A DNA stretch of 64,000 nucleotides from a virus (lineage: Duplodnaviria; Caudoviricetes). Below the pieces are notes generated by a model that searched no databases, was not told the origin of the DNA, and saw nothing but the letters and a program-made list of their open reading frames with translations. The stretch is taken from IMG/VR virus record IMGVR_UViG_3300033075_001536, positions 1-64,000 of that record, one strand, 5' to 3'. Below are positions 44,739 through 62,992 of the stretch, in pieces (the stretch's first letter is position 1; each line of letters opens with the position of its first letter). The translations under genes and the position numbers were made by a program.

Positions 44739-46571
44739 ATGCACATCTTAAATATAATCACTCGATGCTCAAGAACAAAAAATATTTTAAAAGTTAAAGA
44801 ATCTATTTTTAAAAATATACCAGAAAATTTTGAAATATTCTGGCACATCACATTTGATACAACCGTTCTAAAAGACATATCAGCAGAAATTCTATCTGAA
44901 TTGGAACATGATTTTATTTCTCTAAAATTTAGAAAGTCAATACCAGGTGATTATGGTCATAATTTTATAAACATATCATTGGGACAAATTTCTTCTGGAT
45001 GGATTTATATTTTAGATGATGATAATATTTTACATCCAGATTTATTAAAAACAATTTCGGAAAAAATAGAAGAATTTCCAGAAAAAAGAGGATTTATTTT
45101 TAATCAAAAAATTGGTGGGAAAGATTTTTCTGGGTTGGACATAAGAGAAGCTAAATCGGAAAATATAAAAGTTGGATCCATTGATATGGCACAATTTTTA
45201 CTACGAAGGGATTTAATAGGATTTAAACGACTAACATCAAATGAATATAAAGCAGATGGGTATTTCATAGAAGACCTTTTTCAATTCAATCAAGATGATT
45301 TTTTATTTATTGAGAAAGAATTGTGTTACTATAATTATCTACAATCTGAAAAAATGCCAATTTCATTACCAAGGGTTTTATTACTAGGTGAAGATTTTGA
45401 TTTAAAATCCAAAAAATTCTATGATTATGAAGAAGATAGAATAAATAAAAAATTTATAGAAGATAAAGATATAAATAAAGAAGTGATAAAATTTAACCCA
45501 GATGCAATTATTTCTATTGGTGATAATTATAATCAATTTACAATACTTAGTCACTCACCAACCGATATTCGAAAGAGATGGATGCATATAGGAGGTGATG
45601 TTCCAAATAAAGGAGAAATTGCCTACCAATGTGCTATGTCATATATTTTAAAAGGACAAGATCAAGAAACCCCATTAGTTTCATTCTTTACTCCGTTTTT
45701 TAACACTGGTGATAAATTATATAGAACTTATGAGTCTCTAAAAAATCAAGCCTACTCAAATTGGGAATGGGTCTTAGTAAACGACTCAACGGATGAAGGA
45801 AAGACTTTAAAAATAGCTGAACACATTGCTTCAGAAGACCCAAGAGTTAAAGTGTATGATTTTAGAGAAAAATCTGGTGGAATTGTAGGAGAAGCTAAGT
45901 ATAGAGCCGCTTCTTTATCGAGAGGTAAATATATTATGGAGTTGGATCATGATGATGTTTTAACTAATTATGCAACAGAATTAATGGTACAAGCTTTCAA
46001 AGAACATCCAGATGCTAAATTTGTTTATTCTGATTGTTCAGAAATTGATGAAAATCATAATTCACTTACTTATGGAGACGGATTTGCTTTTGGATATGGT
46101 AAATACAGAACAGAAAACTATAACGGTAGAGACTATCAAGTAGCAGCCACACAAAATATAAATCCAAAAACAATAAGACACATTGTTGGGGTTCCGAACC
46201 ATTTTAGAGCATGGGATAGGGAATTTTATCACTCTATTGGAGGACATAATAGAAGGCTAACCATTGCGGATGATTATGAGTTAATAATAAGAACATTTTT
46301 AAAAACTCGAATGGTTGGAATTAGAAAACTTTGTTACTTGCAATTTTATCACAATTCATCTACTCTAAATAACACACAAGACTCATCAAGAGCAGATATT
46401 CAAAGAAGAGTTAGGTCTATTGCACAATATTATAATATAGATATTAAAAACAGATTTGAAGAACTTGGTGTAAAAGATTGGGCATATGAATTTAGTCCAC
46501 ATTTCCCACTTTTAACCGAATCAAAATTCGGTGAAGAGGAAGGTTATGTTAATTATATTTTTAATATATAG
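44739..46571 (+). CDS. Double-domain family-2 glycosyltransferase
   Basis: YILDDDN in the first GT-A domain; VSFFTPFFN, WVLVNDST, ELDHDD, ADDYEL in the second. Confidence 0.85.
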   Translation: MHILNIITRCSRTKNILKVKESIFKNIPENFEIFWHITFDTTVLKDISAEILSELEHDFISLKFRKSIPGDYGHNFINISLGQISSGWIYILDDDNILHPDLLKTISEKIEEFPEKRGFIFNQKIGGKDFSGLDIREAKSENIKVGSIDMAQFLLRRDLIGFKRLTSNEYKADGYFIEDLFQFNQDDFLFIEKELCYYNYLQSEKMPISLPRVLLLGEDFDLKSKKFYDYEEDRINKKFIEDKDINKEVIKFNPDAIISIGDNYNQFTILSHSPTDIRKRWMHIGGDVPNKGEIAYQCAMSYILKGQDQETPLVSFFTPFFNTGDKLYRTYESLKNQAYSNWEWVLVNDSTDEGKTLKIAEHIASEDPRVKVYDFREKSGGIVGEAKYRAASLSRGKYIMELDHDDVLTNYATELMVQAFKEHPDAKFVYSDCSEIDENHNSLTYGDGFAFGYGKYRTENYNGRDYQVAATQNINPKTIRHIVGVPNHFRAWDREFYHSIGGHNRRLTIADDYELIIRTFLKTRMVGIRKLCYLQFYHNSSTLNNTQDSSRADIQRRVRSIAQYYNIDIKNRFEELGVKDWAYEFSPHFPLLTESKFGEEEGYVNYIFNI

Positions 46572-53892: not shown

Positions 53893-54156
53893 ATGAAGAA
53901 AAATCTCAAAGAAATGTTAAGTCACAGAGAGAAGATAGCAGCAATATGCCTTCTAATGGGCTCGTTTTTCCTTCCATTTGGATACGATGCCCTTTTTGCT
54001 ATTATCATGAAATTAACCAATTCATATTGGATTACGGATTTTATTTTCTATTGTATTTCGGCAGCTTTCTTTGGGTTCTATTTTTACTTATCTGGATATA
54101 ATCCATTTAGTCGAGTTTATTTAAAGATCAGGGGAATCTTTTTTTCTAAGTTTTAG
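53893..54156 (+). CDS. Small two-TM membrane protein
   Basis: Two hydrophobic segments, FFLPFGYD; TACATTTG at 53788-53795. Confidence 0.65.
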   Translation: MKKNLKEMLSHREKIAAICLLMGSFFLPFGYDALFAIIMKLTNSYWITDFIFYCISAAFFGFYFYLSGYNPFSRVYLKIRGIFFSKF

Positions 54157-54918
54157 AATTTCTTTATATGTTGGATTTCCACTATCAAATTTGTTCGATT
54201 TTATAATATTTTCACTAGACCACATTGGTATAATATTTTTATAATGGCTTAAAATTTTTAACTCTTCCTCTGTTTTAGCAATAGATATTGGTATGGTGTG
54301 ATCTAGGTGCCAAAGGCTTCTATTTTCCCAATTCATTCCTTCTACAAAATTATCTTCGATATGTTTTTTAAACTCTTGCATTGAACATCCTAATATATCT
54401 TTCGATTTAAAATCTTTTTCCATACCTATTAGTTTTAAATATTTTCTTATTCGACTACTATATCTCAATTTCAAGTTCCAAATAGGGTCTTTTTCGAGGA
54501 CTTCTCTTTTGTATATCTTTCTTGTTGCATTTATTTTCCTTCTATTATTCTTTGAATATTCTTTGCTGTATCTTTTCTTTTCATCTGGAGAAAGTAGATA
54601 TTTCATTTTTTGATTATTGGATATTTTTTCCTTGTTTTTTATATTATATTTTTTTAGATATTCTTTTTTACATAATTTACAAATTCTTTTTTGATGTATA
54701 AACTCCTCTATTTTCTTTTCTTTATCACACGAACTACAAATTTTTTTATCTGGTTTAATACCCTTTTTAATAGTAAATTCTTTGTTTTTGTTCCCTCTTC
54801 GATATTCCCTTAAATATTTTATACGACACATTTTACACTCATTTCTTATCTTTCCTGATCCTCTTTTACCAAACTCGGTAGTGTCCTTTTCAATTTTACA
54901 AACTTGACAAATTTTCAT
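54121..54918 (-). mobile_element. Free-standing HNH-type homing endonuclease with Zn-finger repeats
   Basis: Repeated C..C..EK...EF...C..C; LGCS, GMNWEN, WHLDHTIP, HYKN..PMW..EN..KSNK. Confidence 0.75.
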
Positions 54919-56781: not shown

Positions 56782-57666
56782 ATGGTAAAAGAAAAGAAGA
56801 TTTCAGCTCGACCTTACGAGCAAACAATGATTAAGCCTCTAGATTTTGACAAAATGACTCAAAAATTAAGAGGTTTTTTTATGCCACTTGGCTTTAAAGA
56901 AACATTTCCACAACCTAGAGTATCTATTCTAGCAGCCTGTGAGGATCCAAAAACAATTAGAAAGTACACATTTTCTGGAACAGAATGGCCTCTCATTCAA
57001 ACCAATCAAATGTGGTTAGAACATGACATTTTAAAAGAACCAGAATTGGAAGGTGTTTTTTGTTTATCTACCTCATATAGAGACGAGCCAAATCCAATAG
57101 AAGGAAGACACAATAAAATATTCCCAATGTTTGAAGCGGAGCACCTTGGAGATTACGAACATTTATTAAAAACATTATCAGACTTATGTGTTCACCTAGG
57201 ATTTGTCAAATCAACAAAAGATATTCCATTTTTTACTTATGATGAGCTTTGTGAAAAATATGGAACTTTAATACTTGAATCTGAACACGAAACAAAAATG
57301 TGGGAGGAGTATGGTGATGTGGTTGCAATCACACATTTCCCTCAACGAACAAGTCCATTTTGGAACATGAAATCAATTGGCAAAAATAAACACGGTGAAA
57401 AAATATATGCAAAATGTGATTTCATTATTTGTGGACAAGAAACCATTGGATCTGCTGAAAGAGATACAGACATTGAAACGATGAGGAAAAATTTCCATAC
57501 TATTTCTGGTGGGGAATATGCTAAAATTTTGTTTGATCAATTCTCAGAGGAAAGAGTAGAGTCAGAACTAGAAGACTTCTTTAGTTTACCAATGGTTGAG
57601 AGATGGGGATTTGGGATGGGACTTACAAGACTTCATAGAGCTTTAAAAATTAAAAATCTGATTTAA
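56782..57666 (+). CDS. Class IIb (Asp/Asn/Lys) aaRS-like catalytic domain with no anticodon-binding domain
   Basis: Motif 1 LRGFF..GF.E; motif 2 SYRDEP...RH..IFPMFEAE; ETIGSAER; motif 3 GFGMGLTRL; 294 aa. Confidence 0.85.
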   Translation: MVKEKKISARPYEQTMIKPLDFDKMTQKLRGFFMPLGFKETFPQPRVSILAACEDPKTIRKYTFSGTEWPLIQTNQMWLEHDILKEPELEGVFCLSTSYRDEPNPIEGRHNKIFPMFEAEHLGDYEHLLKTLSDLCVHLGFVKSTKDIPFFTYDELCEKYGTLILESEHETKMWEEYGDVVAITHFPQRTSPFWNMKSIGKNKHGEKIYAKCDFIICGQETIGSAERDTDIETMRKNFHTISGGEYAKILFDQFSEERVESELEDFFSLPMVERWGFGMGLTRLHRALKIKNLI

Positions 57667-57680
57667 TCAGGTTTTTTTTT
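57652..57680 (+). terminator. Probable intrinsic terminator overlapping the stop codon
   Basis: AAAAATCTGAT-TTA-ATCAGGTTTTT plus T run. Confidence 0.5.
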
Positions 57681-57693
57681 GTGAATATTTTAA

Positions 57694-57792
57694 TGTTGGG
57701 TGGTGAAATTGGCAAACACACCGTACTGTCTATACGGCATGGATAAAGGAATAAAAACCTCCATATACATCGTTCGAATCGTGTCCCAACAG
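57694..57792 (+). tRNA. Atypical long-variable-arm tRNA, anticodon GUC (nominally Asp), no encoded CCA
   Basis: Acceptor TGTTGGG/CCCAACA + G; D-arm GTG-AAATTGGCAAA-CAC; anticodon stem CCGTA/TACGG with loop CTGTCTA; ATGGA/TCCAT variable arm; TTCGAAT T-loop. Confidence 0.8.
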
Positions 57793-57830: not shown

Positions 57831-58487
57831 ATGAAACCATTGTTTGATATCAATGATTATAAGAATATAAAATGTTTAGAATTTGAATGTGAATTTTGTG
57901 GAAAGTCATTTGCTCCTTTAAGGAGAAATGCAATACAATCTATTCGTAAAGTTCAAAATGTTCAATTCTGTTCTACTATTTGTAGAATAAATGCTCGTGT
58001 AGAAAAAATAGAAATACCTTGTTCTAATTGTAATAAATTGGTGTATAGAACAAGCTCACACTTTAAAAAAAGCAAAAATAAACGGGCTTTTTGCTCAAAA
58101 TCTTGTTCAGCAATTTATAATAATACCCATAAAGCCTATGGAACAAGACGAAGTAAATTAGAAGCATGGATAGAAAAGAATTTAAAAGATAGATATAATT
58201 TTGAAATAATATTTAACGGAAAAGAAGAAATTAATAGCGAGTTAGATATTTTTATACCGAGTTTAAAATTGGCATTTGAATTAAGCGGAATTTTTCATTA
58301 CGAGCCAATTTATGGAATTGAAAAATTAAATATGGTAAAAAATAATGATAATAGAAAATTTCAAGCTTGTTTAGAAAAAGGAATAAAATTGTGTATAATT
58401 GATACTTCAAATAGTAAAAAATTTAAACCAGAAAGAGATAAAAAATATTTAAATATTATAGAAAAAATAATAGACTCAAAAAATTAA
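57831..58487 (+). mobile_element. Free-standing endonuclease: treble-clef Zn repeats plus PD-(D/E)XK (Vsr/DUF559-like) domain
   Basis: CEFC..FCS..C and CSNC..FCSKSC; SKLE, ELDIFIPSLKLAFELSG.FHY. Confidence 0.7.
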
Positions 58488-61093: not shown

Positions 61094-62992
61094 TTATTCT
61101 TTTACTTCTTCAAAAGTAGCATCTTGAACATTTTCAAATCCACCATTTGGATTCTCTGTGGTTTGAGGATCTTGTTGAGTGGTTTGTGTATTCTGATACA
61201 TTTTTGTGGAAATAGAATTCCAAGTTTCGGTTAACTTTTGTGTTGAAGAGTCGATAGAAGATAAATCTTTTGACTCATAAGCTTTCTTTAAATCCGCTAA
61301 AGCATCCTTTAGACTTGATTTATCTGATTCACTTAATTTTTCATCAAATTCCTTGATCTGCTTTTCAGTTGAAAAGATAAGATTGTCAGCTTGATTTAGC
61401 TTTTCAATTTTTTCTTTTTCTTGACGATCAGATTCAGCATTATCTTCAGCCTCCTTTTTCATACGAGCAACCTCTTCTTTTGAAAGTTGAGATCCACCTT
61501 CAATGCGAATTCTATTTTCTTTAGAAGTTGCCTTATCCTTTGCGGTAACCGATAGAATACCATTAGCATCAATGTCTAATGAAATTTCAATTTGTGGAAT
61601 ACCTCTTGGAGCTGGCATAATTCCTTCTAAGTGGAAACGACCCAAAGAACGATTGTCTTTAGCCATTGGTCTTTCACCTTGAAGAACATGAACCTCAACC
61701 GATGGTTGATTGTCAGAAGCAGTTGAGAATGTTTCTGATTTTTTGGTTGGAATAGTTGTGTTTGCTTCAATTAATTTGGTAAATACCCCACCCATCGTTT
61801 CGATACCAAGTGATAGTGGTGTTACATCAAGTAGCAAAACATCAGTAATATTTCCAGTTAAAACCGCCCCTTGAATAGCTGCTCCGATAGCAACTACCTC
61901 ATCTGGGTTAACAGATTTATTTGGTTTTTTACCAAAGAACTTTTCAACAGCTTCTTGAACAGCTGGAATTCTTGTAGAGCCACCTACTAAAATTACTTCT
62001 TCGATTTCAGATAATTTAATATCTGCGCTCTTGATAGCTGATTTGCAACATTTGATCGTTCTATCTACTAAAGCAGATGTCATTTGATCAAATTTAGCTC
62101 TTGTTAGAGTCTTTACATAGTGTAGTGGAACACCATCTAAAGCAGTGATATAAGGAAGATTGATCTCAGATTGTGTTGTTGAGGACAATTCAATCTTAGC
62201 TTTTTCAGCAGCCTCCTTTAATCTTTGAAGAGCCATTGGATCTTTTGAAAGGTCCATGTTGTGCTCTGATTTGAACTCAGAAACCATCCAATTAATAATT
62301 TCGTTGTCAAAGTCATCCCCACCAAGGTGTGTATCACCATCAGTTGATTTAACTTCAAATACTCCATCACCAATCTCTAGAACAGATATATCGAATGTTC
62401 CTCCTCCAAGATCATAAACGATAATTTTCTGATCTTTTTCTTTCTTATCAAGTCCATAAGCAAGTGCCGCAGCTGTTGGCTCATTGATAATTCTTTCCAC
62501 TTTAAGTCCAGCAATTTGACCAGCTTCAATAGTTGCTGTTCTCTCAGCATCACCGAAATAGGCTGGAACAGTGATAACTGCACGAGTTACTTCATGTCCT
62601 AAATAATCTTCAGCAGTTTTCTTCATTTTTTGAAGAATCATAGCTGAAATTTCTTGTGGGGTGAAGGTTCTATCACCAATTTCAACAGCTGGAACATTTT
62701 TTCCAACCTTAACTACTTTATACGGAACTCTTTTAATCTCATCCGAACAATGAGAAAAATCTTTTCCAATAAATCGCTTGATCGAATAAACTGTTTGTGT
62801 CGGGTTGGTAACAGCTTGTCTCTTTGCTGGATCACCAATTTTACGATCCTTATCAGTGAATCCAACTACTGACGGAGTTGTTCTTTTTCCTTCCGAATTT
62901 GTGATGATGATTGGTTCTCCATTCTCAACAACCGCAACAGCGCTGTTAGTGGTCCCCAAATCAATTCCCAGAATTACATTTTCTTTTGCCAT
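61094..62992 (-). CDS. dnaK: Chaperone DnaK (Hsp70)
   Basis: [38 protein letters not shown]. Confidence 0.98.

Follow-up and report, generated by a model that had tools for sequence, protein, structure and literature searches.

The window, which comprises the first 64 kb (64,000 nucleotides, nt) of the 170,678-bp virus record IMGVR_UViG_3300033075_001536 (about 78% complete), derives from a large freshwater phage and carries a shortened enzyme of the asparaginyl-tRNA synthetase (AsnRS) type with a tRNA-shaped RNA directly downstream of it. Comparison with relatives identifies this locus as one copy of a conserved two-part phage module, the RNA of which belongs to a branch with the anticodon GUC that is found in Bacteroidota and in phages. 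The pair is real, conserved and co-inherited, and neither part needs the other everywhere. Tentatively, the module may be read as an anticodon-blind, asparagine-handling enzyme together with a non-decoding carrier RNA, feeding the supply of asparagine or pyrimidines; it is a possible reading that is held here with reserve. The parts of the module are as follows:

56782..57666, + strand: mini-AsnRS-like enzyme of 294 aa plus stop, a class IIb catalytic core that lacks the anticodon-binding domain (Pfam PF00152, AlphaFold2, Foldseek)
57652..57680, + strand: A/U-rich hairpin over the stop codon with a run of U behind it; a weak terminator-like element or processing signal (fold)
57694..57792, + strand: tRNA-shaped RNA, 99 nt (covariance model R1; sequence reading)
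57726..57732, + strand: anticodon loop CUGUCUA, with GUC at 57728-57730 and U37 at 57731 (sequence reading)
57738..57766, + strand: variable arm, 29 nt, with the closing stem AUGGA/UCCAU (arm motif comparison)

The 294-aa open reading frame matches the Pfam family tRNA-synt_2 (PF00152, the class II D/K/N core) with an E-value of 2.6e-13 over profile positions 27-292 of 308, and it starts about 25 residues ahead of the catalytic domain, which leaves no room for an N-terminal OB-fold domain; its start codon agrees with the starts of the relatives in the family alignment, and the relatives are all 265-310 aa long. The AlphaFold2 model (pLDDT 91.5) contains the class II antiparallel sheet, and its best Foldseek matches are the AsnRS structures 9SH8 and 1X54, followed by AspRS and LysRS. 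Single-sequence searches of NCBIfam and PDB gave weak matches only, the best of them AsnRS; a family profile searched against PDB reached AsnRS at an E-value of 4e-10, and then AspRS and LysRS. An earlier note, written from the letters of the locus alone, had described a class IIb catalytic core lacking the OB domain, and the nearly full-length Pfam match, the missing N-terminal room and the AlphaFold2 and Foldseek results bear this out. The suggestion of a plain AsnA or EpmA relative did not survive the sequence and fold searches: AsnA, archaeal AsnRS2 and EpmA were absent from the PDB matches (E up to 5) that the family profile gave and from the top 50 Foldseek matches. The closest known systems in sequence and fold are thus the AsnRS of T. 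thermophilus (9SH8), P. horikoshii (1X54) and human (8TC8/8H53), which have motifs 1-3 and the LE/ExE pocket positions in common with the enzyme, but which possess an N-terminal OB anticodon-binding domain that the window enzyme, at about 19% identity, lacks; they differ further in that the partner RNA in the window has GUC and in that relatives of the mini enzyme are fused to pyrimidine enzymes.

Motifs 1, 2 and 3 of the class II core are present in the window enzyme, and a motif-2 loop of the length usual in aminoacyl-tRNA synthetases (aaRS) is retained. The family alignments give the motifs QT[GN]QMxLE, SYRxE, GRH, FPMFExE, ETIGSAER and RxGxGxGxxR, and the segments QMWLE, FEAE and GSAER of the enzyme align to QLYLE, VEAE and GGSMR of AsnRS. 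The AsnRS pocket residues are taken here to be the Leu-Glu after the QxxQ motif, the Glu ending motif 2 and the Arg before motif 3; in published structures, AsnRS and AspRS are told apart by Leu-Glu in the former versus Lys-Gln in the latter, and by Glu versus Asp at the end of motif 2. Read in this way, the pocket positions of the mini enzyme are AsnRS-like and not AspRS-like. In the family alignments, catalytic and pocket motifs are invariant across enzymes linked to RNAs with the anticodon GUU, enzymes linked to GUC RNAs and enzymes without an RNA, and no pocket residue was found there that distinguishes the GUC-linked from the GUU-linked enzymes; since the pocket motifs are the same whatever the anticodon, the amino-acid side did not follow the anticodon. 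Judged from these motifs, the enzyme is AsnRS-derived, with the ATP site, an asparagine-type pocket and the motif-2 loop kept and the anticodon reader gone.

The RNA follows the stop codon of the enzyme on the same strand, after a spacer of 27 nt. Its acceptor stem (57694-57700/57785-57791) has 7/7 pairs and contains U1-A72, and G73 at 57792 is followed by CTG, so that CCA is not encoded. The D stem of 3 bp and the D loop AAAUUGGCAAA form a Leu-type D-arm; the anticodon stem has 5/5 pairs and closes a 7-nt loop, CUGUCUA, with U33, the anticodon GUC, U37 and A38; the T arm (57767-57784) has one bulged U in its stem and the loop UUCGAAU. In the variable arm, the 5' half of a family motif (GGAAUAAA) is retained, and its 3' half, CYUAA, is absent. 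Sequence reading agrees with the anatomy previously given for this RNA, namely a Leu-type D-arm, a variable region of about 29 nt, GUC, U37, U1-A72, a T bulge, G73 and no CCA. Bacterial tRNA-Leu has a similar D arm and body, from which the RNA differs by G73 (not A73), U1-A72, GUC and U37; bacterial tRNA-Asp has GUC and G73 in common with it, but shows a short variable loop, a purine at position 37 and G1-C72 where the window RNA has a 29-nt arm, U37 and U1-A72.

ARAGORN, which the earlier note had proposed as a check, did not call the window RNA, and neither did the Rfam tRNA model RF00005 in gathering and E-value modes. The covariance model R1 was built from 20 relatives, the window copy being left out because MAFFT misaligned it; R1 recognizes the window RNA over its full length at 64.8 bits (E 1.3e-16), with all 24 modelled pairs standard, and finds nothing besides it across the 170,678-bp record. 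R1 also scores ordinary phage tRNA-Leu at 55-69 bits, so that the score alone is not specific and the body of the RNA is Leu-like; the marks of the family are U1-A72, G73, the anticodon loop and the genomic context, not the R1 score. By ARAGORN, Rfam and the covariance model, the GUC RNA is the sole tRNA-shaped gene of the 170-kb record, in which the Rfam tRNA model at E up to 0.001 found no ordinary tRNA gene.

The arrangement of enzyme and RNA recurs across phages. The closest enzyme relatives, P0004, P0007 and P0013 (78-82% identity), each have a GUC RNA about 30 nt downstream; these RNAs are 109-111 nt long, have the loop CUGUCUC, and differ from the window RNA in their stems by changes that are compensated. 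In the window and in L204-L210, L235 and L138, the GUC RNA lies 8-32 nt downstream of the enzyme, the gap being 8 nt in L235 and 14 nt in L138 (the same as L162 and L165), whose enzyme is 48% identical. The Prochlorococcus phages P-SSM2, P-SSM5 and P-SSM7 encode homologues annotated as 'tRNA ligase', 47-48% identical to the window enzyme, with an 85-88-nt 'tRNA-Asn' (GUU) directly downstream; this homologous RNA has U1-A72, G73, the common Leu-type D loop and the loop CUGUUUA with U37, as the window RNA has the same pair, discriminator, D-loop type and U37, but it differs in GUU, in an arm of 17-18 nt without the A-rich motif and in its marine cyanobacterial hosts, against GUC and a 29-nt arm in the window. 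A pattern scan of viral contigs gave more than 100 long-arm RNAs, all GUU and of two subtypes (cyanophage), and wherever upstream DNA is available the enzyme, encoded on the same strand, ends 10-30 nt (in a few cases about 90 nt) before the RNA. The second GUU subtype (L019, L033, L039, L067, L115 and similar) has the acceptor UCUGGGG, a 13-15-nt arm and an encoded CCA, unlike the main cyanophage GUU type and the GUC branch, in which CCA is not encoded. The adjacency is therefore kept, with GUC RNA in the 78-82% relatives, L235 and L138 and with GUU RNA in more than 100 cyanophage contigs, and the refuting condition named in the earlier note, an adjacency that is not conserved, does not hold.

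Among 20 diverse members of the RNA family, 98.3% of the cells in paired columns are paired and both-sided changes occur in 18/24 pairs; alignment A7, which was contaminated by ordinary tRNA-Leu, was excluded from these pair counts. The window RNA had been called 'chimeric' or possibly 'decaying', and this description is not supported, as U1-A72, G73, U37, the Leu-type D-arm and the long variable arm, which look odd, define a large family with strong covariation. A maximum-likelihood enzyme tree was rooted with bacterial AsnRS and AspRS, whose very long branches mean that the tree gives no direction for the change between GUU and GUC. This tree supports monophyly of the mini enzymes (99/93) and places all six GUC-linked enzymes in a single clade (100/100), which also takes in the RNA-less ones and none of the GUU-linked enzymes. 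Of the six members of the window enzyme's own clade (100/100), two, L006 and L007, no longer have the RNA next to the enzyme. Tight same-strand adjacency is found in both RNA branches and with enzymes of no more than 47-50% identity; as read from the tree and the alignments, GUC is a conserved state and the enzyme clade tracks the anticodon type. Literature searches brought up no account of the module and none of phage Asp/Asn tRNAs with long arms; the cyanophage 'tRNA ligase' (T4-GC 194) is merely a table entry (PMC3037559).

Two results go beyond the earlier note, namely the occurrence of the RNA family in Bacteroidota chromosomes and the fusion of the enzyme family to pyrimidine enzymes. 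A scan of prokaryote genomes with the D loop and anticodon loop gave, among the matches listed, which is also the scope of the family counts below, nearly exclusively Bacteroidota, with the GUC RNA carried by Cyclobacteriaceae, Saprospiraceae, Spirosomaceae, Flavobacteriales and others. In the bacterial matches that were parsed, the loop CUGUCUC, U1-A72 and G73 are each found in 123/124, with lengths of 108-182 nt; 83 unique GUC RNAs, parsed from phage contigs and in a few cases from metagenome records, agree in these invariants. U37 is invariant, U1-A72 and G73 occur in nearly all phage copies, and the anticodon loops CUGUCU(C/A) and CUGUUUA are invariant family-wide in the copies parsed. The Bacteroidota RNAs with giant arms have U1-A72, G73, the D loop GAAAYUGGCA(G/A)AC, CUGUCU and a class II body in common with the window RNA, but carry C38 and a two-sided arm motif where the window RNA has A38 and a short arm without the 3' half; moreover, the window RNA is tied to a mini-AsnRS and most members of the Bacteroidota family are not. 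Variable arms of the 83 unique GUC RNAs range over 15-102 nt, and in 60/83 both halves of a two-sided A-rich motif (AYAAA ... CYUAA) occur in order, which is not so in the window copy; the GUC RNAs of L138, L224, L267 and L301 have plain short arms. The internal-loop consensus of the arm is GRAAUAAAS ... CYUAAHC, often with an inner GGGUUGACCAC element (L211-L330 viral, L331-L450 prokaryote). The A-rich motif resembles, in its sequence, an internal loop of the tetraloop-receptor type; no named Rfam family was found in the giant variable arms of the relatives, and the RNA family as such is uncatalogued.

Most GUC RNAs have no mini enzyme nearby, and about half of the phage copies stand in tRNA arrays. 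The arrays L240, L272, L289, L290 and L325 hold the GUC RNA beside an ordinary tRNA-Asp(GUC), which argues against a plain Asp-decoding role. Five RNA-carrying bacterial genomes have canonical AsnRS in 5/5 and GatB in 4/5 cases. The RNA family is real and, by its invariant features and these arrays, most likely not a normal decoder. A side observation concerns marine contigs with an enzyme-less long-arm tRNA(GUC) of the type-2 acceptor UCUGGGG (L144:113-546 and L180:586-1019, also L168); a tmRNA gene adjoins this RNA and, in L144 and L180 (tag end ...VALAA), lies 4 nt downstream of it, and the three open reading frames upstream had no Pfam match.

A search of 1.8 billion cluster representatives gave 137 clusters of the enzyme family at E up to 1e-30, 2 of which are fusions to pyrimidine enzymes:

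L454:5001-6986: P0127, fusion of dihydroorotate dehydrogenase and mini enzyme, 661 aa, 45% identity; adjoins an orotidine monophosphate (OMP) decarboxylase gene
L457:544-2310: P0141, fusion of mini enzyme and OMP decarboxylase, 588 aa, 42% identity; adjoins Pribosyltran (pyrE-like) and DHO_dh genes

Both fusions retain every motif of the mini enzyme, and the last three steps of UMP synthesis are encoded beside the mini enzyme in these loci. The two loci are short contigs with small clusters of pyrE-like and pyrD/pyrF genes. By strong guilt by association, a role of the enzyme family upstream of dihydroorotate is suggested, and a spare translation factor does not fit such fusions.

The proposed reading, an asparagine-handling enzyme with a non-decoding carrier, builds on the observed anatomy, conservation and covariation, on the joint inheritance of anticodon type and enzyme clade, and on the pyrimidine fusions; what it infers is all of the chemistry, the way in which the reaction runs and that the enzyme touches the RNA at all. 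Host AspRS would load aspartate on the RNA through its Asp-type anticodon and G73, and GatCAB, which selects tRNA-Asn by the pair U1-A72, would read that pair in the RNA and convert the aspartate to asparagine. Position 37 of tRNAs is near-universally a purine, and U37 together with the extra arm might keep the RNA off the ribosome. The phage enzyme would then act at the acceptor end of the RNA, loading or removing an asparagine-like group; being blind to the anticodon, it would have as its target either that end or the same asparagine-like metabolite. The product would go to the asparagine or the dihydroorotate/pyrimidine supply of this A+T-rich phage (G+C 29.9%), not to translation, and the difference between GUU and GUC may reflect which host AspRS loads the carrier. 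The scheme thus resembles tRNA-dependent asparagine formation by a non-discriminating AspRS and GatCAB, in that the RNA joins U1-A72 with GUC, G73 and mostly C38, and differs from it in that the substrate would be a putative non-decoding look-alike with an Asp anticodon. A more specific form, which is rather unlikely, is a tRNA-dependent nucleotide shortcut, in which the AspRS-loaded and GatCAB-amidated RNA, or free asparagine, would be turned into dihydroorotate by the AsnRS-derived enzyme; this would replace carbamoyl-phosphate synthetase, aspartate transcarbamoylase and dihydroorotase, and the anticodon, GUC or GUU, would be a mere handle for AspRS.

Catalytic-core-only paralogs of aaRS have been put to new uses elsewhere: AsnA and archaeal AsnRS2 are asparagine synthetases, EpmA/PoxA lysylates EF-P, and Glu-Q-RS/YadB, of class I, glutamylates Q34 of tRNA-Asp. 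Like the mini enzyme, these have lost the anticodon reader and taken up a new job; unlike it, none of AsnA, AsnRS2, EpmA and YadB is known to have its own RNA gene, and YadB is of the other class. Synthetase paralogs without an anticodon reader are familiar, but none is known to travel with its own RNA gene. The pyrimidine fusions suggest that asparagine or aspartate may be connected with pyrimidine synthesis through a tRNA-shaped carrier, by a route so far unrecognised; if true, phages would have a new type of auxiliary metabolic gene, one that encodes an RNA, and possibly a new enzyme of nucleotide synthesis.

Several observations weigh against this reading. The enzyme occurs without such an RNA nearby in L006 and L007 (78-81% identity) and in L010-L018, the RNA occurs without the enzyme in the complete phages G009 and G011, and the mini enzyme is absent from 5/5 RNA-bearing bacterial genomes checked. 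No DHO_dh or OMPdecase genes (pyrD, pyrF) were found in the record of the window phage. Absence of the mini enzyme makes no difference to the invariance of U1-A72 and G73, and so these are not evidence of recognition by the enzyme. In addition, no RNA of its clade diverges more than the window copy, which has A38 instead of C38 and a bulged T stem and lacks half of the arm motif. The co-occurrence with GatB weighs neither way: among 121 Bacteroidota genomes, both RNA-positive ones (2/2) have GatB against a base of 101/121, the exact pattern having matched only these 2.

The alternative with the next claim on these data, possible though doubtful, is that two auxiliary genes travel together without contact, a purely metabolic ligase that acts on free substrates (to make, e.g., dihydroorotate or asparagine) and an additional copy of the host's carrier RNA, served by host enzymes alone. 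The fusions and clusters with pyrD, pyrE and pyrF, the wide occurrence of each part alone, the weak terminator-like hairpin between enzyme and RNA, and the homing-endonuclease genes on both flanks, which suggest mobile cargo, are all in keeping with it; the recurrence of same-strand adjacency within 8-32 nt in two RNA branches and with enzymes of 47-50% identity is not, nor are the aaRS-length motif-2 loop and the nearest folds, which are true tRNA synthetases and not AsnA. It is improbable that the two form a private translation pair, in which the enzyme charges the RNA with asparagine so that GAU/GAC are partly read as asparagine, or in which the enzyme has turned Asp-specific; if they did, the module would be a working anticodon-blind synthetase/tRNA pair and thus a ready-made natural orthogonal pair. 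The intact cloverleaf, the canonical T loop and the 7-nt anticodon loop with U33 would allow decoding, the cyanophage version has the cognate GUU, and GAT is the main Asp codon of the phage, in which Asp makes up 6.8% of codons. However, an anticodon that swaps between Asn and Asp while the enzyme pocket stays constant is hard to square with faithful decoding, the pocket motifs being identical in GUU- and GUC-linked enzymes with no specificity switch visible; asparagine at Asp codons would harm the phage's own proteins, U37 stands where a purine is near-universal, a translation factor would have no reason to be fused to pyrimidine enzymes, and a normal tRNA-Asp is also present in arrays.

The RNA might instead be a nuclease-proof spare or a decoy, which would evade or titrate an anticodon nuclease such as colicin E5, whose targets are the tRNAs for Tyr, His, Asn and Asp; this appears quite unlikely. 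CUGUCUC and CUGUUUA differ from the loops of E. coli tRNA-Asp and tRNA-Asn only at position 37 (A37 to U37). Anticodon-loop changes in phage tRNAs have been proposed to evade anticodon nucleases (PMC10264068), which would agree with such a role. The presence of the RNA in the chromosomes of many Bacteroidota is a poor fit to phage counter-defence, and the giant structured arm, U1-A72 and the linked enzyme would all be left unexplained. Very little probability is given to the view that the family RNA survives in the window only as a remnant in decay, with the enzyme working alone as in L006 and L007. Its three departures from the closest relatives (A38, the bulged U of the T stem and the missing 3' half of the arm motif) and the loss of the RNA in those sister phages would suit decay, but 24/24 modelled pairs remain standard although L206 and L209 differ from the window copy by many substitutions, which are compensated in the stems, the D, T and anticodon loops are intact, and plain short arms are also found in L138, L224, L267 and L301. 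Least probable is charging by host SerRS, which recognises the long arm and not the anticodon, to give a serine donor or a missense tRNA: this would be in line with the class II body, the long variable arm, G73 and G2-C71, but the body is Leu-type and not Ser-type (cf. the R1 scores of phage tRNA-Leu, 55-69 bits), U1-A72 is not a Ser feature, and the AsnRS-type partner and the limitation of the anticodons to GUU and GUC would find no explanation.

The hairpin that overlaps the stop codon of the enzyme has an 11-bp A/U-rich stem of -9.3 kcal/mol with a z-score of -1.96 (fold of 57636-57692), and an equally stable fold was obtained in 12/200 shuffles; a consensus terminator scan did not call it between the enzyme gene and the RNA. 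Comparable hairpins terminate the enzyme gene in relatives, whether the RNA is present or absent. The hairpin noted previously between enzyme and RNA is thus real but weak. The neighbouring genes of the module and two further genes of the window are as follows:

54121-54918, - strand: homing-endonuclease-like gene (endonuclease VII/HNH) flanking the module (domain matches)
57831-58487, + strand: homing-endonuclease-like gene (zf-FCS and PHROG HNH endonuclease) flanking the module (domain matches)
61094-62992, - strand: full-length Hsp70/DnaK gene (PF00012, E 3e-256)
44739-46571, + strand: gene of a protein of 610 aa that contains a GtrB-like glycosyltransferase domain of family 2 (domain match)

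The HNH/homing-endonuclease genes on both sides suggest that the genome region holding the module is mobile and variable.

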